IMG/VR virus record: IMGVR_UViG_3300023242_000561
Coordinates: 1 to 54,978 of that record
Strand: one strand, 5' to 3'
Source: a virus
Lineage: Duplodnaviria > Caudoviricetes
Length of the DNA stretch: 54,978 nt
Shown piece after piece: positions 1-54,892 of the stretch; positions within the stretch are counted from its first letter, which is position 1, and each line of letters starts with the position of its first letter. Made by a program: the position numbers and the translations under genes. The notes under the pieces are model-generated. The model saw only the letters and a program-made list of their open reading frames with translations. It searched no databases and was not told the origin of the DNA.

Positions 1-78
1 CGTTTCTTTTATACCAAACGTGTGCCAAATTGAAACCCAAGATTGCTTTTTGCATCGACGCGATGGTAAATGAATGCC

Positions 79-148
79 AACGTATGTAGAACATACACCC
101 TCTTAAAGTCATAAGCTTTAAAATACAAATTTTAAAGTCACAAGAATT
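79..148 (+). repeat. 70-bp direct repeat, copy 1 (identical to 504-573), with internal GTATGT-AGA-ACATAC hairpin
   Basis: AACGTATGTAGAACATACACCCTC...CACAAGAATT reads identically at both positions. Confidence 0.97.
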
Positions 149-180
149 AAGAAATAATAATAACTTTTAAAATTAAGATT

Positions 181-252
181 ATGCCTAATCACGTAAAAAA
201 AAGATTGAAAAAATTTAGGAAAGAGATAATGTTGAATGGTGCGCTTTCTTAA
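181..252 (+). CDS. Possible 23-aa basic micro-ORF (MPNHVKKRLKKFRKEIMLNGALS)
   Basis: Hand-translated; AT-rich leader; sits between repeat copy 1 and an attC-like site, in the same position as ORF 588-710. Confidence 0.35.
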   Translation: MPNHVKKRLKKFRKEIMLNGALS

Positions 253-256
253 TTGT

Positions 257-350
257 GCCTAACGTTAAGGCTATGTTTCGTTGCCTTAAAACGAAGCTAA
301 TTATTAACTACAAATGATTATGAGCAATGAAAATATAGCCAGTGTTAGCA
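257..350 (+). other. attC-like imperfect inverted repeat 1
   Basis: GCCTAAC (257-263), arm GGCTATGTTTCGTTGC (269-284), arm GCAATGAAAATATAGCC (324-340), then AGT-GTTAGCA (341-350). The hairpin is seen; the attC reading is inference. Confidence 0.6.
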
Positions 351-505
351 AACGTTTTATTATCGAGGTATTCTTAAACGATAGAAGACTAGAATATAGA
401 GCTTCTAATAATGAAATGGATATTGATAAAGAACTGATAGAGTTAAAGAGGACTTACAAAAGTAATAACTGTGTTTTCTATAAAGGTAAACTAAATGTTT
501 GCTAA
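314..505 (+). CDS. Small hypothetical protein (cassette-like)
   Basis: 63-aa ORF; its stop TAA lies inside GCTAAC at the start of repeat copy 2. Confidence 0.65.
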   Translation: MIMSNENIASVSKRFIIEVFLNDRRLEYRASNNEMDIDKELIELKRTYKSNNCVFYKGKLNVC

Positions 506-573
506 CGTATGTAGAACATACACCCTCTTAAAGTCATAAGCTTTAAAATACAAATTTTAAAGTCACAAGAATT
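504..573 (+). repeat. 70-bp direct repeat, copy 2
   Basis: Identical to 79-148. Confidence 0.97.
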
Positions 574-587
574 TAAAAATAAATATT

Positions 588-710
588 ATGACAGAACTAG
601 AAAAACATAGAGAAACTTGGCAAGATAAAACTGAAAGCCAAACGGATAAAACACCGTATGAAGTATTAGAGCAAATTACAAAGTTGAAAGACGAAATGTA
701 TTGTGCCTAA
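588..710 (+). CDS. 40-aa hypothetical protein (MTELEKHRETWQDK...DEMYCA)
   Basis: Hand-translated; AT-rich leader (AAATATT-ATG); stop lies inside GCCTAAC. Confidence 0.55.
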   Translation: MTELEKHRETWQDKTESQTDKTPYEVLEQITKLKDEMYCA

Positions 711-901
711 CGTTAAAATGTATGGTTAGTGCCGACTAAATAAAACATAAATTATGAAAATAGAAGAACAAATTTTACAAATATTACACGACTTTGAAAC
801 ATTTAAGTTAACAAACGATGAACAAGGTGTTTACGCAAAAACAACAAGCTATATACCATTTATTGACCGAATTAAGGCATTAACTATACATAGTGTTGTT
901 G
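705..901 (+). other. attC-like imperfect inverted repeat 2, with a long loop containing the start of ORF 754-993
   Basis: GCCTAAC (705-711), arm ATGTATGGTTAGTGCC (718-733) pairing with GGCATTAACTATACAT (876-891; 14/16 Watson-Crick plus 2 G:T), then AGT-GTT (892-897). Confidence 0.65.
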
Positions 902-993
902 TGCCGAAGGGTACGTTGTGCGATTGCGGAAGTAGTGATTTTGATAAGCTAGGATTCTGCCCTTGGTGTGATACTGATGCTTATTCACATTAA
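754..993 (+). CDS. Small hypothetical protein with C-terminal CxC...CxxC zinc-ribbon-like motif
   Basis: 79 aa; LCDCGS...FCPWC; good AT-rich leader. Confidence 0.75.
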   Translation: MKIEEQILQILHDFETFKLTNDEQGVYAKTTSYIPFIDRIKALTIHSVVVPKGTLCDCGSSDFDKLGFCPWCDTDAYSH

Positions 994-1163
994 TTATAAC
1001 GGTTTAAATATGAGTAGTGGCGTGAAAAAGGGTTAACAGTAGCGTACATAAACCAGTAACCCTGCTAGTTATACAGACTAAATACACCAAGCCTTTACTG
1101 TATATGGTAGGTGAGAAAGCTGTTAGATGTACTTAGCCATTACTTATATTTATTGTTTGTTAG
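994..1163 (+). other. attC-like imperfect inverted repeat 3 (no evident ORF)
   Basis: TTATAAC (994-1000), arm AAATATGAGTAGTGGC (1006-1021) pairing with GCCATTACTTATATTT (1136-1151; 14/16 plus 2 G:T), then ATT-GTT. Confidence 0.6.
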
Positions 1164-1165
1164 CG

Positions 1166-1208
1166 TAAAAAGAGAAACCCCATCCTAATAAGAATGGGGT
1201 TATCTCTC
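1166..1208 (-). terminator. Putative intrinsic terminator
   Basis: AACCCCAT...ATGGGGTT stem; on the minus strand it is followed by TCTCTTTTT. Confidence 0.55.
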
Positions 1209-1637
1209 CAAAAGAAAAGAAAACAACCGTAAGGAATGTTTAGTCTTTAATTTCTTACAATGAGAACCAACCTCTGAATGTGCAGCAGCTATAAGCGATC
1301 CGAGCGACCAGTATATGAAAGGTATGGAAATGAAGGAAAAGTACAATGAAATAAAGAGTGTTCTAAATACCCTCTAACAGTTAAGATAAAAATAGTACGA
1401 AATGGCAAGAGTAAAAAATATATGTATAAACTCTTTAAAGATTGGTAGTATGGTTAATACTTGTAAACTTTGTGAAATGATTGATGTTAGAATAGGATTG
1501 GAATATTTCTGTATAGTGTATGCTAATTTGCTTTATAAAGCCCCTGAGATTTCAATATTTGAAACTCCTGAAGCCTTAGATACGGAATAGTTCTGGAAAT
1601 GGCTTTAAAATCAAAACTTATTATGAATAACTCCCTT

Positions 1638-1673
1638 ACCTCTAGGCTGTTTGACATATGCCTAGAGGTTTTT
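1638..1673 (+). terminator. Intrinsic terminator at the convergence of plus- and minus-strand units
   Basis: Perfect 10-bp stem ACCTCTAGGC/GCCTAGAGGT followed by a T run, just beyond the stop of the 1801-aa gene. Confidence 0.7.
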
Positions 1674-1682
1674 AAGTCATTA

Positions 1683-4600
1683 CTACTTAGAGAATATTTT
1701 TAACCATTTTCTTTTCTCTTCAGGATATTGTGCTTCAAACACATTCTTAAGAAATGATCTTTGTATAACAAACTTCTCAAATGGGTTCTTACCTTTATAA
1801 GGTCCACTTTGTAGCTCATCTGTGAATACAAAACTCTTATAGAAACCTACAACACTATCTAACTGATTAGCTATTGCGGTAGGCGACTTGATTAGATTTA
1901 CAGCTTCTATTGGTGATACCAAAGCAGTAAGTTCTAGTACTGTTTTATGTGCTTGGAACAAAACAAACTGTGATAACCAATCATCATCATCATCATCGTC
2001 AAATTGAGATAAAAGAATCTGAAAAATAGCATACATTAGTGCCATAGCTGCTAATTCTAAAGCAGTTCTTAATAAGTTTCTTTTTTCCATTGGAGATAAC
2101 TTATTCCAATATTCAACAGCTTTTTTACTACCTTCACCACTAAGACGAATACTCATTAATTTACTAACAGCTTTTTGGTTTTCTTTATCTTTAGTTACTA
2201 CATTAAAATAACCTCCTACTAGGTCTTTAAGAACTCTACCAGATGTTCTTAAGTAACCTTCATCTTCCATACCTGTTCTAGGGTTAATACCCTTAGCTTT
2301 CATTCTTGTTGAAATACCGTTAACTAAGAAGTTACGGTGTAGTAAAAGTGTTTGTCCCAAAGCATCTCTACTAACAGCAGACCTGTCTAAACCTGACACT
2401 CTTCCGTCAATCCTATCCCCTATTAAATTCACTTTACCTTTCAATAAAGAAAGTTGTTCTTCAAGTTTTGGAACTTCTTTATATTCCTCTTTAAGTTGAC
2501 GAGTACCTTTTTCATCAATACTGAACATACTCCTAACTGTAGGATAACTCTCCCACTTAGTCATATCTCCACCATTGTTCTTATATTCCTTCTTGCTTAT
2601 AAACTTACCGTCTATCAGTCTATGATAGTTGAGTTGACTTATTACAAGTTGACCTTTAGTAGCATGATCAAATATCTTATACCCACCGAAGAACATATTT
2701 CCCTCATTGATAAAACCCCTTTTTAATTTGTTTATTGAACTATTACTAAATTGTGATACCGCAGTTTCAGTAACTTCAAAGTAATCCATCCACATTTGAA
2801 CTTCAGAAGTCTGTACTTTTGACTCCATATCTGGAATAATCTTAGTAATTAACTCTTTATAATACTCCTGTTTAGATTCTAACTTAGTTCTAGTATCACT
2901 ATATTCTCCAACTATATCTTCAATAGCTCCATATATAGATGAAGTTATTGCTGAAGTAACTATAGTAAATGGATTATTACCTAAGTTGTTTCTTCTAACA
3001 TAAGCTGAGAAAGAAGCTAATATTTTTGATATGTTAATCTGCTTACCAAAGAAAGGTAAGTCTACAGTCATTTCACTTAACTCTTCACCATATACATAAC
3101 CGTCTAAGAATGATGCAAACATCTTTGTTGCATTTTCTGTGTTAGTAGCTTTTTTATTCTTATTTAAGTTAATTCTAGATTCTAATCGGTTTAAAACTAT
3201 ATTAAGATCAGGAGCTATACTAGCCATTCTCTTAAAGTTATGTGCCATGTTTACATGTTTGGCTAATAAGAACGCTATATCCTGAGACATATCACCATCA
3301 ACGTCACTTAGTTTCTTTCTATAATAGACAGGAATCATTCTGTTTAGTTTCTGATTATCTAAATCTATAGAATCATCTCCTTTAAGACCAAACATATCAT
3401 CGTCTTCTCTTGAAAAGATAACGTCTTTAATTGGTTCTTTAATACCCTCCCAACCTTCAGACCAAACTAAGAAACGCTCTAATGGTTGTTTTCTAATTTG
3501 AGGTAATAGAAATAGGTTTCTGCCTGATATTTTATTTTCAGGTAAGGCTCTATCACCTAAAGCTTTAACAGATAGAGTTGTAATATACAACTTCTTCTGA
3601 GCTTCAGTCATACTACTATATTTTTTATTAACCCATTTTTGAGAAGGTAATATCCTTTCATTAGCAAAAATACTACTAGCTTCTTCAAATTCGTCATTCT
3701 TGACAGAGTTTTCTCTCATCCAAGCACCCCATCTTTTAGTGTACATTAAAAGTCTGTTCTGTTTATCTACTTCTGCTGAAGTAACATTAAGTGGAGAAGT
3801 ACTTTCATATTTTTGAAAGAACAAGGCTCTAGTTTCAGATATTTCTTCTTCAACTTCACTATAGCTTTCATAACCAAAAGATTTAGCTAATTCGTTCATT
3901 ACTTCATCTTTACTCTGAAACCAAGCTTCCCAAAGATAGGGTGATAACATATTACCTGTTCTTTTATCATCATCAGAATTTCTTTCATACATGTAGTCCA
4001 GACTATTAACTCCTTCAGCTTTAGCTTCTTTAATTGCATTCGCTAGAGTCTTACTAGCTTCTATAGTAACATCAGAAGCTTCATCTTTTTTAAGTTTAAC
4101 CGCAGCATACATATTACGTAGAATCTTATCATCTACATCAGCCATAGAAGCGAAATTCTTAGATAGTGACCAGATGTCACCTCTTTTTTGTTTCAATTCT
4201 GTACGTATATCTTCTTTATTCTTATACCCACCTCTATCATTCTCCCAAATAAAATTCACAGCACGATCTTCCATCTTATCTATAAGGTGCTGCTTAATTG
4301 TATTAGCCAAACCATTAGCTTGACTTAATGAGTTTGCTGAGTAAGCAGTCAGATCAAATCCATACTTTTTAAATTCTTCTACAGTAACTTCATCATCTTT
4401 TAAATGATGTAGTTTATTAGTAATGTTACTAAAACTAACTACAACATCATGCATATCTACTAGTTCTTTAGCAGTAAAGTCTACATTTTGACCTAGTTCT
4501 TGAAACCTATCTAAGAACTGACTCATATCCTGTATTGCTTTTTCTGCGAATAGAGTAATACTATAAACTTCATTACTCTCACGTATTGCAAACTTCATTC

Positions 4601-7088: not shown

Positions 7089-10000
7089 CAGTTACATATC
7101 TTTTCGTTAAACTTACCTTGTAATAAGAGGTCGTCTGATTGCGTGTCCTCTATATTGTAATTAACATCACCTTCCAAACTTCTATAAGTTATTCCAACAA
7201 TGTTTTTCCTATCCTCAAAACTTATTTCTATTTCTTGTTCTGTTTGAGAATCAAAAGCAATAAACACATTATCATTTTTAACACTTGTTAATCTTAAGTT
7301 CTTTTTGACATCGTTGTGCATGTAACTAATACTTTTAAATGTTTCAACAAAGTCATGAGCATTAAGTGTATTAATGTCATTAAGAGCCTTAACTTCTTGT
7401 GCTTCAGTATATGTGTTCTCTAAAACTCTACCTTCCTGTAATGCTTCTACAGCTAACCTAAACCCTTTAGCTAGTGCTGTGTTTTGAGAAAGATCGACTC
7501 CTAATTTTTTAGCGATAGAAGCTAGGAAATCTAAAACATCTTGAAAGAAACTTCCTAAAAACGTATTACCTTGCAAAGATATAGTTTTTGTGAAACTTCT
7601 GAAGTTTTCATTAGTAAACATATGAGCTACAAACTCAGCTCTATTATCTAGAGCATGAAAATATCTAGAGTTTTCTATTCTTATAGGTCTAGTATCTCCT
7701 TTTTTTCTAGCTTGTTTCGCTTGTTCATACTCCATTAAGTATTTCTCATAAGCTCTCTTACTAGTAGGGCCACCTGTTTTATCATTATTAATATGATCTT
7801 TAATTTTATTCATTAAAGAATCAATCTTATTAACTAACTCTCTAGCTTCTTTAGTAGTAGGATTATTTAATGCTTCTACTGTAATTGAATGAATTATCTC
7901 TTCTAATACCTTCTTATCGAAAGAATCTTCATTATTGAGTTGATTTACATTAATGTATATCTTACCTTCTTTACTATTGTAATTTGATGAATATTGATTA
8001 GTAAACTCAACTTTAGTTTTATTAGTGTTGATATAACCTTTTATAAATCTAGCTAGTTCTTTAAATCCTTCATTCTTACTACCCATTTCTATCTTAGAAA
8101 GTAAGGCACTAACAGAAGCATCTTTATTTAGATCAAGATTATAAGTAGGTTCTGGCATTAACAGACCTTTAGTCAATTCTAATTGACTACGCATCTCTGT
8201 AGGTAAGGCTGTTGAACTATACGTAGAATAGAACTTGTCGTTTCTAGGATTATAAAAAGTATAGTTACCTTTATCATCTAAGAAACCTATCTTAACTACA
8301 CCATTTTCTAATTCTCTTTTAACAAACTTACTTCTAGAATCTAAACTCTTAGTAACTTCATCTTCAAAATTAGGTAAGTATTGTGAATTATGAAATGCGA
8401 ATAAGCCTACAAAATTTTTAACAAAATCACTTTCACTATCTATAGAAGTATTAAAGTTTATACCTCTTAGATATTCATACATCCCTAACTCTCTAAATAA
8501 TTGAGGTGGTATAAACCTAGCGTAACTCTTAGTATATGATAGCGGATTTAATACATACGCCTTAATCAAATCTTTAGCTAACTCTTTAGTATCAGGATTA
8601 GTATATAAAGCCACAAAAGAAATAGAGATACGATCACTATCAACAAGATTACTCTTATCATTAGGATATATCATAACTGAACCACCATTCTTTAGATTTG
8701 ATCTGGATAACATATTTAGAAATAAGTTGTCTGGATATTTCTCTAAAGCTGCACTAACATCTTTGAATAATCCTGATTTATTAAATAACCTACTTCTTAA
8801 ACTATCTACATCTTCTCCTTCAAATATAGGATTGTCATTACTACCGTAGATATAAGCTCTAAAAGCATTCCACATCTGCTTTTCAGCAGAACCTTTATTA
8901 GGTAAATCCTGTAGATACTTTTTCAACATTGTTTTAACTGTAACAAAAAGTGTTGATCTATAAGGGTAGATACTCTTAAACATACCTACACCTTCTTCTA
9001 AAGTAACTCTAGCGACAGAACCTTGAATGTTAGGTTGCTCACCATTAAATAAGTCTTGTAGATTTTGAAGATGTTTAGTATCTTTAACATTCTCCATAGC
9101 TTCAGCTTTAGCTACAGCAGCAAATAGATCAGTACCTATACCAGAAGTATCTGAATATGTTTGAAGAACTGATTGTACTTTACGTAACTCTTCTGATACT
9201 TCAATTAAGTAAGATAATCTTTTCATAATCTCTGAATCAGAAGCTTCCAAGTTATTAAAAGACTTATCATCTATCGGATTAAATACAAACTTACCTTCAC
9301 TATTTCTAAGATTTCCTATGTTTCTATCTTTAATAGTTTTAGCTAATGCTAAACTTTTAATCTTACTAGAATCTAAACTACTATTCTGTAGTTGTAATTC
9401 TTTGAGATTTCTATTATAAGCTAGAACTACAGGTTGATTAAAGAAGTTCTTGATGTCATCTAAGTAAAATCCCATGTGAGCTAGTAGTGAAGCTTCACCT
9501 GAGTTATCGTAACTTAAATTAAGTGCTCCTAATAACGGATCATTTTCATTATCTACAGCAGCATTAAGTAATGCTATAAGTACTGACTTTTTAGGTACTT
9601 CTTTTTTACTAGACCTTCTTGATGCTAAAGACTTAGCTTTAACATTACCTAAACTAAAATTATTTCTAGTTAGTTTAATGTTACTATCTTCTAATAAAGC
9701 ACTAAAAGTTAAGTTTACAGCATATACGCCAATAGCCTGAGATGCATCAGAACCATCTAAAAATCTATCAAATAAAATATCAGGATTGATTAACCAAGAA
9801 TCTCTTTGTCCTTCTCTTCTTCTTTTTAATATTTCATCTCTATACTTAGGTAACTCTCTAGTAGAAGTAGGTCTTATACTTTCTAAGAAACCTTCTTTCG
9901 ATAACATAAGATTTCTTCTTATATCTAACATCTTGTTTCTAGACAACATGTTTTGATAATCTTTATATAGATTATTACCTTTGTCTTGTTGAGTTTCACC

Positions 10001-13000
10001 TAATACATTAGTACCACTTTTCTGGAATAGTTCTTCAAATACTACAGTAGAATCACTAACGGCCTTTAATCTACCGTTATGTTCATACATATATCTGTGA
10101 TATAAGAATAACTTATCCACATCAAAGTCAGAACCCATTTGAGCAACTAAATCTCTAGATGCAATTACCATATTAGAATTAGGTAAGAAACCTGCTATCT
10201 CCACATAAGTCATAGATGAATGTGCAGAAGTCGGAACCCTAAAACCAAAAGCTTCTAATACTGACTGATCTATTCTCGATAAGTCTAACATCATCCTACC
10301 ATCTTTCATGACGGTATATTCAGACATGTCTATCTTAGTAGACTCTCCTGTATCTATGTTAGGCATAGAGAAGTCTTTAGGTACAAGCACCTGACCAGGA
10401 GCTACTTTATATTCACCATTTCTTGCTTTCTCAGCACTAAACTGATCAGCAGGTATCTCACTACCATCATTGTTAACAAAACGCATAGGTTTTAAACCTG
10501 TAGTTCTGTCAAACTTGTCTGTAAATATTATACGAGACTTACCTGAAGATTTTTCGTTATTACCGATAAAACCTTGTTCAGAAACTAATATAAGTTGTGA
10601 ACCAAATGTTTCCTGCTTGATAACATTATTACGTATCATACCTACTATAACTGATTCATATATATCAGCTCTAGGGTGTAATGCTAAATCTACTTCAAAT
10701 ACTTCACCATTAATATCATCATCAATAACATTTAACGCTTCTTCTTCTGCTGAAGTTAATCTACCATCTCTAGCTTGTTTAAGTAATTGTTTACGAAGTT
10801 TACGTACATCAATAGATTCTGAATTAGGAACCATTATGTCATTCTTAAATCTATCTAAACCTTGTAAACTAAACTCAAGAATACCTTTCATAAAGTCTTC
10901 TTTCATCTTATTTACTTCAGGAGTATTAGGCATACCTTGAAAGATTTGTACTTTCTCCTGAGCAGCTATCTTAGTTTTCTGAGTCTTTTTGCTAGGGTTA
11001 TCTTGTTGTATTCCTAAGTATTTTCTAGGAAGTACATAAGCATCTCCAAACTCTCCATCAACGAACTTTCCATCAGACCAACCTTCAAATACTTTAACGG
11101 CTGAAGATTTAATTGCTGTTTTATATGCAGCTCTTACTGATCTAACTCTACCTAATTTTTTAAACGATTCAGCTTCTCGTTTCTCCATCTTAATACGTAA
11201 CTTATCAATTTCAAAGTCAGCAGTAAGTTCAGGATTAAGCATATAACTTGAAGACTTAATATATTCTTTAACTTCAAATCCTTGATCTGTTATACTAAAT
11301 CCTGAGTAAACAGGTTTAATAGGAGATGATTTTTCTAAGAACAACTCTAAATAGTTTTCATTTTCAGTACCTTCAGCTCTAAGAACTGAAAACAGTTCAT
11401 CCATATAATAGTGATCACCTCTAGTTATAGCATCTGTATATACTCTATCTATAGCTTCCCACATTCTAGTAGGAATTTGACCATCATAGTAAAGAGTTCT
11501 GAAGTGTTCTCTAACAGTAGTCATTTCCTGAGCATCAGCAGATTCAATATTTCTATATTGATCAGCTTCTTCTTTAGATAATAGTGCATCATATTGATAC
11601 TGTATCTGAGAAGGTCTAGGATCATCATTAAGTGCTAGTAACTCGAAATCATAATCATTATCTGGAACAACATTACTTTTAGAAGGAGTACTTAACGATG
11701 TTAATCTTTTGAAGAAGTTATCAGCACTTTTATCTATAGATGAAACACTGTCACCACCTTTAGAATAAGAAGCAGGATCACCTAAGAATGTAGATTGCAT
11801 ATTTATTTGAAACAAAATATCGTTAACCACATACTGTGCAACAAACTCATTAAAATTAGTTTTCTCAGAAACACCTTTAGCTAAGTTAGCTTTAGTTATT
11901 CCTAATTCCTTAAACTGTTTAATCTTATCATTTATAAGATTATTAACCTCTTCTTGTATCTTGTCAGCAATTAAATTTCTTACTGTCTTACCGTCTTCAG
12001 ATACTTGTTCATCTAATGATTTTAAAGTAAGATCGTCATTCCATATTTCATCAGTATTACCACCATATTTACTATGATTAAGTCCTGTGAACTTATAGAA
12101 TTTATTAGCTTTCTTATATTGATCAGGTATTAGGTTTTTATCTTTAGCATTTTGAATACCTAATATTCTATTTATTTCTCCCATAGCAGCTTCAAACATA
12201 AGTCTTCTACCTCCTGCTGATAAACTAACTTGAGTATTATCAGGATTGTCAGCATAAATTACATTTAGTCCTACATCATAAGTAGGTGCAGTAACTACTA
12301 AAGCTCTAATTTTACCTACAATAGGAAATAAGAATCTAGCTACTCTACCATTAGCTTTCTGTTTAGAGAACAACATTAACTTTGTCTTCTCTATAGATTT
12401 TTTATCTTGTTGTCCAACACCTAATCCATACTTACCTGTTTCATCAAACTTAGATGAATCAAAAGGTACTATTTCAAAGTTATCTCTCATGATAGCTTGA
12501 TCTATAGCCCTAACTCTAATACCTTTTTCATCTAAATACTCTTTAGAAGCTAACTTCAATAACCAGTTTTGATAAACAGGACTAACCCCTTCCTCATAGA
12601 AGTAACCTGAAAATAAACTCTTTCTAAGTTTATCCTCAATACCTACTTCATTCATAAGGTCTTTCATCATTCTTGAATAGAACTTATGATGCTCAATAGT
12701 ATGTTGAAGACTACCTCTACCATTACGTACACTAAGGGTATAGTAGTTATTACTATTCTCAGATTCCATAAAAGCGATTTTCTCTACTATACTAGAGTCT
12801 AGAAATTCAGGATTATTATTCTGTAGCTTATCATAAACTTCTTTTAATCCAAACTGACTAGCAGTAAAAACTAACTTAGGATTAAGAATACTTTTTTTAC
12901 TTATAGTAATACCATTTTGAGATATTTGAAAAGCAGTACTGTCAGAAATATTAATTCCAATATAACCCAATAATGTTTTTATTTGTTGAGGAGTATATTC

Positions 13001-40678: not shown

Positions 40679-41568
40679 TATACTAAAGCTGTGCTTTTAT
40701 CTCTTTTGAGTCTGTCTTTAAGCTGCTCTTTATAACCATGATTCTTTTCGTCTAATAAGAAATCAATGACCGCTTCTTTATCTTCGCCTATCTTTCTGTC
40801 TCTATCCCAATAGGCATTGCCTGATGTTCTTAGAGTACCGTGAGTAACAAGCATATCAATAAAGTATCTCAACATGATATGTGGATCACTAGCAATTTGA
40901 TTAAAATCAATTACTGTGTCCATGTTAGAAGCTACTTCACGAAGAAGTAATATCCTATCATCATGTGTAAGATTTTCTACATCATCTCTCTTATGAACGA
41001 ATTGAGTCTGTTGCAATAGAACCAAAGTTCTCTTTTCATCATTAGAAGCTTCTTGATAGAACCGCATAGCTTTATCAAGTTCTGTATTAAGCTCCATCTT
41101 ATGACTTCTTGCAACGTCTGGATCAACTAGAACAAACGCTTCAATAGATTCAGGAACAGAATCTAGTATTCCCTGCTTGACTTGTTCTAACGTAAAAATG
41201 TTCTTCTTACGTCTTAACCATTCAAACTGAACCCAATGTCTAAGGTTCATAGGTGTACCGTCTTCTTTTACTGAAACATTTAACTCATAACCATCAGTGG
41301 GAGAACTACCAGCAGGAACGCTGATAGCCATATCCCTCCAAAAGTCATCTATTTTTTGCCTAAGTTCAGGATCATCTTTACTTATGTTCTGAATTTTCAT
41401 TACATAAGCTTCACCTTTAGTGTCTGGCTCAAATGGATTGAGTGACTTCCCTGTAAGGTCGTCAGTTTCAGAACCACAGATTTTGATAGACTCCTCTCTT
41501 ATTTCTTTAGGAATCCTATCAAACTCTATGGGTCTTCTTTGCAAATACTTCTTTTCAACTTTTGTCAT
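40678..41568 (-). CDS. Conserved crAss capsid-module protein (portal-vertex auxiliary-like)
   Basis: FW motif, C-terminal IG...EAVIDFL.D.KN; directly after the major capsid gene. Confidence 0.65.
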   Translation of the reverse strand: MTKVEKKYLQRRPIEFDRIPKEIREESIKICGSETDDLTGKSLNPFEPDTKGEAYVMKIQNISKDDPELRQKIDDFWRDMAISVPAGSSPTDGYELNVSVKEDGTPMNLRHWVQFEWLRRKKNIFTLEQVKQGILDSVPESIEAFVLVDPDVARSHKMELNTELDKAMRFYQEASNDEKRTLVLLQQTQFVHKRDDVENLTHDDRILLLREVASNMDTVIDFNQIASDPHIMLRYFIDMLVTHGTLRTSGNAYWDRDRKIGEDKEAVIDFLLDEKNHGYKEQLKDRLKRDKSTALV

Positions 41569-52959: not shown

Positions 52960-53198
52960 TGAGGGAATCCACATAAAGAATCGACCCCCACTTACTAAAC
53001 AGATGGAAGTACCCCCATCGAATCACAAGATTCCAGACGAATACTATAGATAAGTATAAATTAATTCAACTCTATAAGGTTAATTCAACCACATAAGGTT
53101 GAGTTAATCACTTAATGGTCAACAAGAGTTCAGACGACTCTTAAAGATAAGGATTGCAACGAAGCAATCTGTTTTTTAACTCAATAACCAATTTAATT

Positions 53199-53546
53199 AT
53201 GGACACTTTGAATCCTAATGCCCAAGGTAGTGCAGATCAATCATTTGATCTTGATAGTTTCGTTAGTGAAGCTAAGGTTTATGGTCGTAAGATTTATGAA
53301 GACGTTAAGACTTCACCACCTATTGCTGTAACTGAACAGTTTAAGGTGGAGCAGCAGACTTATGAAGACGGTACTGTTGGTCATGCAATCAGACATGAGT
53401 TACCTAAAGGAACGGTTTATCATCCGTTACGTAAGGGTGTTCCTACTGATTTACCAGCTTATCGTTTAGTTATGTTGAGAGCCATTACAGCATGGCCTGA
53501 GCGTAATATCGAAGTTGGTAAGATTGCTTATGCAGCTATTCAATAA
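53199..53546 (+). CDS. Hypothetical (probably early) protein, paralog of 54527-54892
   Basis: ATG at 53199 with an AT-rich leader; shares motifs with the paralog. Confidence 0.8.
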   Translation: MDTLNPNAQGSADQSFDLDSFVSEAKVYGRKIYEDVKTSPPIAVTEQFKVEQQTYEDGTVGHAIRHELPKGTVYHPLRKGVPTDLPAYRLVMLRAITAWPERNIEVGKIAYAAIQ

Positions 53547-54526: not shown

Positions 54527-54892
54527 ATGGACACAGTTAATGTTAATGCCCCAGTAGCAAATGTATCAGCTACACCTCAAGTTGCACCACAAGTTGCAGG
54601 TTTCTTTGATGATCTGCAAGAGTATGGTGAAGCAGTTTATGGACTTCATAAGGAACATACGACAGTAAATGTCAATGATGATCCTTCATTGGAGATTGTA
54701 CAAAATGACAAAGGTTATTCTATTAAGTTAAGAACACCTCAAAACACCGCTAAGTACATACCTATCAAAGGAAATAGGTTGTCTGATAGTGGTATTTACG
54801 GTTTGAGTGAGTTTATTGCATTGAGAGACTGGCAATCAGACACAGCATCAGTCTCCAAAGGCAACATCAGCAAATTTGCTGTAGCCAAATAG
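54527..54892 (+). CDS. Hypothetical (probably early) protein, paralog of 53199-53546
   Basis: 121 aa, AT-rich leader, followed by a terminator. Confidence 0.85.
   Translation: MDTVNVNAPVANVSATPQVAPQVAGFFDDLQEYGEAVYGLHKEHTTVNVNDDPSLEIVQNDKGYSIKLRTPQNTAKYIPIKGNRLSDSGIYGLSEFIALRDWQSDTASVSKGNISKFAVAK

Follow-up and report, generated by a model that had tools for sequence, protein, structure and literature searches.

Putative orphan array of integron-like gene cassettes at the end of a phage contig and its site family in Flavobacteriaceae

Results

Small genes alternate with hairpins at one end of the contig

In a virus contig of 54,978 bases (IMG/VR record IMGVR_UViG_3300023242_000561), which we refer to at its full length as the window, we observed a row of small genes separated by hairpins that open with an AAC core and close with a GTT core. 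The contig is a single record with a CheckV completeness of ≈31%, and the row occupies bases 1 to 1168, the end of a plus-strand block that converges on a minus-strand operon. This block holds four complete tiny open reading frames (ORFs; 181–252, 314–505, 588–710, and 754–993) as well as the end of a fifth, which is cut by the left edge of the contig, and none of these small ORFs has a significant match to a PHROG or Pfam family.

Five YAAC-G cores lie on the plus strand of this region: GCCAAC at 76–81, GCCTAAC at 257–263, GCTAAC at 501–506, GCCTAAC at 705–711, and TTATAAC at 994–1000. A search for GC[CT]?T?AACGT gives four matches within 76–712 and, on both strands of the remaining 54 kb, a single looser one (GCAACGT at 41111). 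An ORF stops in or near each core, with TGA at 71–73 or TAG at 87–89 for the ORF that runs off the left end and TAA at 250–252, 503–505, 708–710, and 991–993, and three of these stops overlap or abut the next core. The units between successive AAC cores (82–263, 264–506, 507–711, and 712–1000) contain one complete small ORF each. An earlier note, made from the letters of the sequence, had described five ORF ends in or near such cores, and we located all five cores and stops.

Three of the cores open a hairpin. In H1, arms at 269–284 and 324–340 enclose a loop of 39 nt and are followed by AGT and the GTT at 344–346; in H2, arms at 718–733 and 876–891 form 16 bp, two of them G·T, around a loop of 142 nt, followed by AGT and the GTT at 895–897; in H3, arms at 1005–1021 and 1136–1152 enclose 114 nt and are followed by TT and the GTT at 1155–1157. 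H1 alone has a bulged A in its stem. The earlier note had placed these three structures correctly to within a few bases. Its description of the stems as unrelated in sequence has to be given up, as all three share NTATGNNNNGT.../...ATNNNNTATAN. A covariance model (R1), derived from 71 elements in other genomes and none from the window, was run on all 54,978 bases on both strands with filters off, and it returned exactly these three as significant matches, all on the plus strand: site 1 at 250–357 (63.5 bits, E = 2.8e-10), site 2 at 708–899 (36.7 bits, E = 3.9e-5), and site 3 at 987–1168 (50.4 bits, E = 9e-8). The fourth-best match in the window has E = 1.1. In the shuffling test that the earlier note had proposed, bases 994–1210 fold with z = −5.1 and none of 200 shuffles folds as well. 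The gap between the E-values of the three sites and that of the next match, together with this fold score, excludes chance, and the three hairpins are therefore real.

Read from left to right along the plus strand, the array begins with the first copy of D1, a 91-nt direct repeat (67–157 and 492–582, 95% identical) that holds the cores at 79–81 and 504–506. A 33-mer of D1 has two exact copies in the window, compared with none in 100 shuffles, and a D1 30-mer is absent from the viral contigs searched. Copy 1 (67–157) consists of an R′′-type box, TAAATGAATGCC, followed by AAC 79–81, G82, a mini-hairpin at 82–96, and ≈60 nt of A/T-rich DNA ahead of ORF1 (181–252, 23 aa), whose stop lies 9 nt ahead of AAC 261–263. 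Site 1 (250–357, R1 model positions 1–147) comprises an R′′ box, this AAC, the 5′ arm, a loop at 285–323 that contains the ATG of ORF2, the 3′ arm, GTT 344–346, and an R′ box at 344–357. ORF2 (314–505, 63 aa) starts in the loop and reads through the 3′ arm (..NIASVS..), and its TAA at 503–505 overlaps AAC 504–506 of D1 copy 2 (492–582), in which an R′′-type box precedes the core and a mini-hairpin at 507–521 follows it. ORF3 (588–710, 40 aa) ends in a TAA at 708–710 that overlaps AAC 709–711 of site 2 (708–899). The 17-nt box at 700–716 of site 2 is identical to 252–268 of site 1, and its loop at 734–875 carries the ATG and first 40 codons of ORF4; the element finder described below recovers this site as well. 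ORF4 (754–993, 79 aa) thus has an N terminus that derives from the loop, then the stretch ALTIHSVVVPKGTLCD from the 3′ arm, the GTT, and a small hairpin at 901–914, and finally a Cys-rich C terminus that ends 5 nt before AAC 998–1000. Site 3 (987–1168), the last unit of the array, has AAC 998–1000, GTT 1155–1157, and a structured loop without an ORF.

The small hairpin (GTGCC-GAAG-GGTAC, 901–914) lies directly 3′ of the site 2 GTT, and its DNA is kept in loci L001, L002, and L003 and partly in L047, L086, and L090.

The sites belong to a family with co-varying stems

A search with ORF4 returned three unrelated viral contigs that match only over the 13 to 18 residues of ALTIHSVVVPKGTLCD, with near-identical DNA. 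Because only this stretch matched and its DNA is so similar, the constraint appears to act on the nucleic acid rather than the protein. Scanning for the motif AACGGT-N4-6-TATGGTTAG yielded at least 119 stretches in viral contigs and at least 120 in bacterial and archaeal genomes; many are chance matches inside coding sequence, and we used only those with a pairing partner. The idea that AACGGT..TATGGTTAG is a two-box promoter was dropped once the 3′ partner arm and its co-variation emerged. An element finder that requires, besides the motif, a partner arm able to pair and a GTT behind it returned 85 elements from the viral set and the window (41 locus-strands) and 138 from the genome set. The latter lie nearly all in Flavobacteriaceae, including Winogradskyella, Dokdonia, Psychroserpens, Tenacibaculum, Cellulophaga, Aquimarina, Polaribacter, Aequorivita, and others.

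The anatomy of the sites is uniform. A unit-specific box that ends in YAAC is followed by six to nine free nucleotides, the last two to four of which often extend the stem, and by the arm NTATGNNNNGTNNNN; after a loop of 3 to 361 nt come the arm NNNNATNNNNTATAN, two to five free nucleotides, GTTR, and a second unit-specific box. The stem of ≈18 bp co-varies and contains two near-invariant G·T wobbles. Among 71 compact elements, none of them from the window, 96.8% of cells pair, a share that is partly built in by the pairing requirement of the finder, and 13 of the 16 inner-stem pairs vary on both sides, a variety of pair types that the finder did not impose. The covariation score is 0.538; shuffles give 0.141 (none of 500 attains the observed value), and sliding the partners gives 0.12 or less. 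All 71 elements have both AAC and GTT, and the fourth pair (Y/R) is standard in 54. At two fixed stem positions, G·U is found in 65 and 70 of the 71 elements, respectively, and is almost never swapped for a Watson–Crick pair. About half of the stem positions are kept in sequence (TATG..GT / AT..TATA), and the alignment of these elements has no conserved bulged (extrahelical) bases. The sites of the window measure 108, 192, and 182 nt, and most bacterial copies ≈140 to 150 nt. Rfam 15 holds no relevant family for bases 1–2000 of the window or for five viral and five bacterial array loci; Flavo-1, which the earlier note had singled out for comparison, gives no match at E up to 10 in the former or at E up to 1 in the latter.

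The family is widespread in Flavobacteriaceae and present in phages

Of 61 genomes sampled from a single bacterial family (that of genome G006), 57 have R1 matches, with up to at least 51 sites per genome; the named members of this family in a separate scan are almost all Flavobacteriaceae. Bacterial arrays can be long: sites with the strict 5′ motif extend over at least 36 kb in G006 and over 59 kb or more in G009. A further genome, G010, includes dozens of short contigs full of sites (C6–C32), from which we conclude that its arrays broke up in assembly, and arrays are probably under-counted in draft genomes. Of ten bacterial cassette proteins tested, three have a Pfam match (RDD, DUF2199, and Coq4).

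Three viral records contain 16, 7, and 11 R1 sites, and viral contig L003 has nine matches between 4811 and 9173. Among named phages, Cellulophaga phage phi4:1 has one match and Tenacibaculum phage Gundel_1 has none. Viral sites cluster in early or accessory gene blocks. In the record behind L109 (G001), a phage genome of 56 kb that is complete and has terminal repeats, the 16 sites fall in two oppositely oriented clusters (5.5–11 kb, minus; 19.4–21.8 kb, plus).

Boxes pair across the gene

The two boxes that are specific to each unit follow a rule. In bacterial arrays, 57 of 81 of the 13-mers that begin at GTT pair at 11 or more of 13 positions with the box ahead of the following AAC; at the same threshold, the counts are 10 of 136 for the element's own box, 1 of 86 for the previous box, and 5 of 138 for a random box. 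Of 84 cases at viral loci, 37 have a partner of this quality downstream and 11 have one upstream, and for 3 it is the element's own box. In the window, the R′ box of site 1 (344–357) is complementary to 493–506, the box before the next AAC (14 nt, 93%). Among 2289 AAC-ended 13-mers of the window, the plus-strand one ending at 506 is its best partner (12.5/13) once the reverse complement of the box itself is set aside, and a single further one reaches 11/13. The related arrays L052 and L099 differ by two bases in the box after GTT, and the box that precedes the next AAC differs in the complementary way (GTTAGCTGCTGGG / CCTTGCAGCTAAC against GTTATATGCTGAG / CCTTGCATATAAC).

Some arrays adjoin Xer-like tyrosine recombinases

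In three of five bacterial genomes searched (G006, G009, and G010), a tyrosine recombinase gene encoding 376 to 401 aa is followed directly by same-strand ORFs ≈150 nt apart; no recombinase lies near the arrays of the other two. The best family for these recombinases is NF040815 ("tyrosine recombinase/integron integrase") at 218 to 241 bits (cut-off 220). On the IntI model TIGR02249, they score 192 to 211 bits in two stretches, below the cut-off of 265. Compared with the solved IntI4 (2a3v), they have 22 residues where IntI4 has 64, that is, ≈42 fewer at the IntI-specific insertion; among solved structures, a XerA/XerC-like protein (4a8e) is their best relative. On the basis of these two comparisons, we regard the enzymes as Xer-like and devoid of the IntI insertion.

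A recombinase also adjoins an array in one phage contig. L003, a viral contig with portal- and capsid-type genes, encodes a 294-aa homologue (9555–10439) directly after its nine sites that is 33 to 40% identical to the bacterial enzymes. A 150-aa ORF (9109–9561) that starts inside the loop of the last site lies just before it, and the two ORFs together may correspond to the bacterial recombinases of 376 to 401 aa, which have an N-terminal extension of ≈110 aa.

Sequence comparisons show breaks at or near the cores

One version of the hairpin is 87 to 95% identical across six viral contigs over 87 to 119 nt only. The shared stretch starts at most ≈12 nt from AAC in every pair and usually at AAC itself. 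Its other end mostly lies a few bases beyond the second box, although in a few pairs it lies inside that box or ahead of it. The flanking genes are unrelated on either side, yet a matching box closes each downstream gene. In bacteria, an all-versus-all megablast gave too few long matches and a relaxed run only a handful; the few cassettes that are shared between species end at AAC +2 (comparisons L141, L159, and L235/L243).

We also aligned contigs of four metagenome runs (X1–X4) to bases 1–4000 of the window. The contigs diverge from the window at 82 (after AACG), 260 (before TAAC), 350 (after GTTAGCA), and 894 (one base before GTT), and branch points near the arms occur at 885 and 1007. At position 82, at least two continuations exist besides that of the window, with contigs of X1 and X3 that match bases 1–82 and then differ. 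As contigs of mixed communities, they show the modules in other contexts and not a rearrangement of this phage.

Contigs of runs X2 and X4 share bases 894–925 and then part ways. Over the two D1 regions (1–134 and 537–670), contig depths in run X1 sum to 94 and 49, compared with 15.8 in flanking single-copy DNA; because the depth over D1 exceeds that of the flank, further D1-like copies must exist, either in the X1 community or in the part of the genome that lies outside the window.

The window derives from a distant crAss-like phage

Between 1683 and 52867, every large gene of the window, ORFs of 1801 and 3749 aa among them, is encoded by the minus strand. The only matches to the C-terminal 1000 aa of the 1801-aa protein are "RNA-polymerase subunit" genes of crAss-like phages (Bacteroides and Cellulophaga phages), with ≈24% identity in the 30 listed of 71 matching records, and it is this exclusive kinship that identifies the source as a distant crAss-like phage; of the lytic crAss-like phage of the earlier note, it is the kinship that our data support. 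The protein has no relative among the viral or metagenome contigs searched, and the phage collection contains no DNA match to the window, that is, no close relative.

The array is bounded by an intrinsic terminator of the converging minus-strand operon (1176–1201, minus strand), which has an 11-bp stem followed by TCTCTTTTTA and lies outside the array. An Rfam match to GibS (1168–1270, minus strand) is noise over this terminator (25.5 bits compared with a cut-off of 115). A sigma-70 promoter scan found 5 promoters compared with 8.6 expected and is thus uninformative; Bacteroidota promoters are outside the scope of that scan. At the right end of the window, four copies of CAAGA[GT]T[CT]CA[GA]AC (53026, 53123, 54415, and 54459, plus strand) lie upstream of small plus-strand ORFs (53154–53546 and 54527–54892) and are candidate early promoters of the crAss-like phage. 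The core CACAAGA of this promoter-like motif also closes both D1 copies (139 and 564). The non-coding DNA before ORF 54527–54892 holds two copies of a 22-nt direct repeat, acaccttatatataggtataaa, at ≈54289 and ≈54347 on the plus strand (58 nt apart).

Discussion

We consider it reasonably probable that the window contains a row of gene cassettes joined by folded sites of an integron-like family that it shares with arrays of Flavobacteriaceae. The sites resemble those of integrons and of clusters of attC sites lacking an integrase (CALINs) in their inverse AAC and GTT cores, unpaired asymmetric spacer, variable-loop stem, and a stop codon that falls in the first core or beside it. The cassettes are likewise integron-like in that the box behind GTT is complementary to the one that precedes the following AAC and in that small genes form co-oriented arrays. 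As in the CALINs of phages, the phage copies lack an integrase. The window, with three family sites within 920 nt and no tyrosine recombinase in a record that is ≈31% complete, would count as a CALIN only if these sites are attC sites in the strict sense. There are also differences. Unlike attC sites, the family has a stem with conserved letters and two fixed G·T wobbles instead of extrahelical bases; unlike integrons, it is linked to an Xer-like recombinase without the IntI insertion, and its phage genes lie on the folding strand and often start inside the loop. Classical attC sites are ≈57 to 141 nt in length, and those of the window 108 to 192 nt. The integron-like array of the earlier note stands with respect to the attC-like family, the box pairing, the arrays behind a tyrosine recombinase, and the branching of contigs, and the further units and recombinase that it sought elsewhere are present in many bacterial genomes and phage contigs and at bacterial arrays and L003, respectively. 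What does not stand is a canonical integron: the associated recombinase is Xer-like and lacks the IntI insertion, two of the five cores have no full site, and the phage genes are reversed relative to the site when compared with the bacterial arrays.

Two other known arrangements invite comparison. Sedentary chromosomal integrons, such as that of Vibrio cholerae with its repeats, have homogeneous attC sites, and they share with the present family near-identical sites beside unrelated genes, as in the six viral contigs, and long arrays; they differ in the type of recombinase, in the site sequence, and in that our family belongs to a phylum with almost no reported integrons. The promoter-stem-loop (PeSL) cassettes of T4-type phages carry promoters and are thought to act via homologous recombination. 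They too place repeated intergenic stem-loops around small variable early genes, and D1, with its mini-hairpin and A/T-rich leader, resembles a PeSL. The AAC and GTT cores, the box pairing across the gene, and the dedicated recombinase of the bacterial arrays set the family apart from them.

Among published surveys, Qi et al. 2023 (PMC9892861) report 17 CALINs in phages, some of them virulent. For Bacteroidetes, the IntegronFinder 2.0 paper (PMC9024848) gives, in the portion that concerns this phylum, only In0 elements and one complete integron. The rAID-1 arrays of gut Bacteroidales contain immunity genes (Ross et al., bioRxiv 10.1101/471110), and the accessible account of them describes no hairpin, core, or phage copies. 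Judged on layout alone, loci L243, L244, and L245 agree with rAID-1 in having a 5′ XerD-like recombinase gene, at least two co-directional genes, and repetitive intergenic sequences; the window itself fails this recombinase-headed layout. We found no paper in the literature that describes the site family or its phage copies, and the supplementary files of the rAID-1 study may hold a repeat motif.

A number of observations weigh against the cassette interpretation. The 55 kb of the window contain no PF00589 match, in agreement with the earlier note's statement that no integrase is present, although the record is only ≈31% complete; the domain is also absent from five viral records with arrays, one of which is the 100% complete 56-kb genome with terminal repeats and 16 sites. 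Both D1 copies have only a 6-bp mini-hairpin, no GTT partner, and no R1 full-site match, and the boxes after the GTT of sites 2 and 3 find no partner in the window, so that one site of three is paired. Some metagenome branch points fall away from the cores (146, 160, 590, 885, 923–925, and 1044), several of them at module ends, and general homologous recombination between conserved modules would yield the same picture of branch points. The sole joint across the array, from 166 to 570 in runs X1 and X2, was not counted as an excision: it has a 21-letter side and lies between the D1 copies. IntI1 recombined five of six tested phage attC sites, one from a Polaribacter phage included (PMC9892861); that experiment does not carry over to our family because Polaribacter phage P12002L has no R1 match. 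Gene polarity is a further difficulty. The longest ORF between sites runs opposite to the well-pairing site strand in 75 of 79 bacterial intervals and along it in 39 of 40 viral ones. The bacterial polarity is the classical arrangement, in which the bottom strand would fold. Because the phage polarity differs, the phage units are not simply captured host cassettes; they are a separate pool with the site in front of the gene. Of the viral sites, 19 of 22 with loops of 125 to 165 nt have an ATG 17 to 35 nt into the loop that opens an ORF of 62 to 108 aa through the 3′ arm, a feature that fits a role at the RNA level as well. The ORFs that start in this way carry a recurrent LTIPVV / LTIHSVVV peptide, and none occurs among 15 bacterial sites with loops of that size.

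Such a role would mean that the phage elements act mainly as RNA, with sense hairpins and box pairings that control processing, stability, or translation and with a mosaic produced by ordinary homologous recombination between intergenic modules, as proposed for the PeSL cassettes. We think this rather unlikely. It draws on the fact that the well-pairing strand, the one with G·T and not A·C mismatches, is the coding strand in nearly all viral intervals; a phage transcript would contain the G·U version of the hairpin, which keeps this explanation alive. The two wobbles that almost never become Watson–Crick pairs, the start codons in large loops, the boxes that close tightly around ORFs, the complete phage genome with sites and no tyrosine recombinase, and the branch points at module ends instead of cores all agree with it. 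However, the element is antisense to the genes in most bacterial intervals, so a sense RNA cannot be its general function; bacterial arrays start directly after a recombinase, and the array of L003 adjoins one; and no Rfam family matches. The hairpin that precedes each phage ORF on the coding strand, a structure kept with fixed mismatch-like wobbles, and the clustering in early or accessory blocks could also be expected of other single-strand DNA signals, such as hairpin promoters or priming signals that work while the phage DNA is single-stranded. That these, and not recombination sites, are what we observe is very unlikely, as they leave unexplained the pairing of the GTT box with the next AAC box, the recombinase at the head of bacterial arrays, and the opposite gene polarity in bacteria.

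The array may instead consist of inactive relics of once-mobile cassettes, a proposal that we regard as improbable. It would account for a window without a recombinase, for D1 units without a GTT half, and for the unpartnered boxes of sites 2 and 3, but the three sites score well on a model derived from other genomes with all stem pairs kept, L052 and L099 differ by a compensatory change, and population branch points lie at cores. Finally, a region with 28 to 34% G+C and 49 inverted-repeat pairs in 1700 nt, many of them weak, might be expected to form hairpins by chance or to contain ordinary terminators. The probability of this is negligible in view of the R1 E-values and the fold score given above, the hundreds of homologous copies elsewhere, and the lack of a T-run after the stems, and the matches to R1 in the window and in nearly all of the sampled bacterial genomes refute it.

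The left end of the window is best classed as an orphan array that belongs to an integron-like, Xer-type cassette system found in Flavobacteriaceae and their phages, an assignment in which recombination is itself an inference from kinship with integrons. By the same analogy, the mechanism would most likely be as follows. Bases 1–1168 would be the distal end of a plus-strand block of small accessory genes, laid out as a row of cassettes joined by folded recombination sites. One DNA strand, presumably the coding strand in the phage, would fold, and a recombinase would cut and exchange strands at the AAC and GTT cores, such that the units between successive AAC cores could be excised as circles and then reinserted. 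Because the window has no recombinase, the enzyme would have to come from outside it, whether from the unseen two thirds of the genome, a co-infecting phage, or the host.

More tentatively, and with less than even confidence, we propose that phages of Flavobacteriaceae, crAss-like ones included, may run cassettes of their own with inverted polarity, in which the site stands before the gene on the coding strand and the start codon often lies in the loop. One element would then serve both as a recombination site for an Xer-like recombinase of host or phage and as an expression signal. If this dual role is true, lytic phages could swap complete small accessory genes by way of a system that is near-universal in the host family. 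The reversed polarity of the phage units and the genes that start inside the site are testable differences from integrons, and they bear on the origin of cassettes and their sites. Active sites could explain the shuffling of small, fast-changing accessory genes in crAss-like and other phages and, if they are indeed active, would constitute a large, barely described gene-exchange system with an Xer-like enzyme that connects the chromosomes of the hosts with virulent phages, both at sea and in salt lakes.

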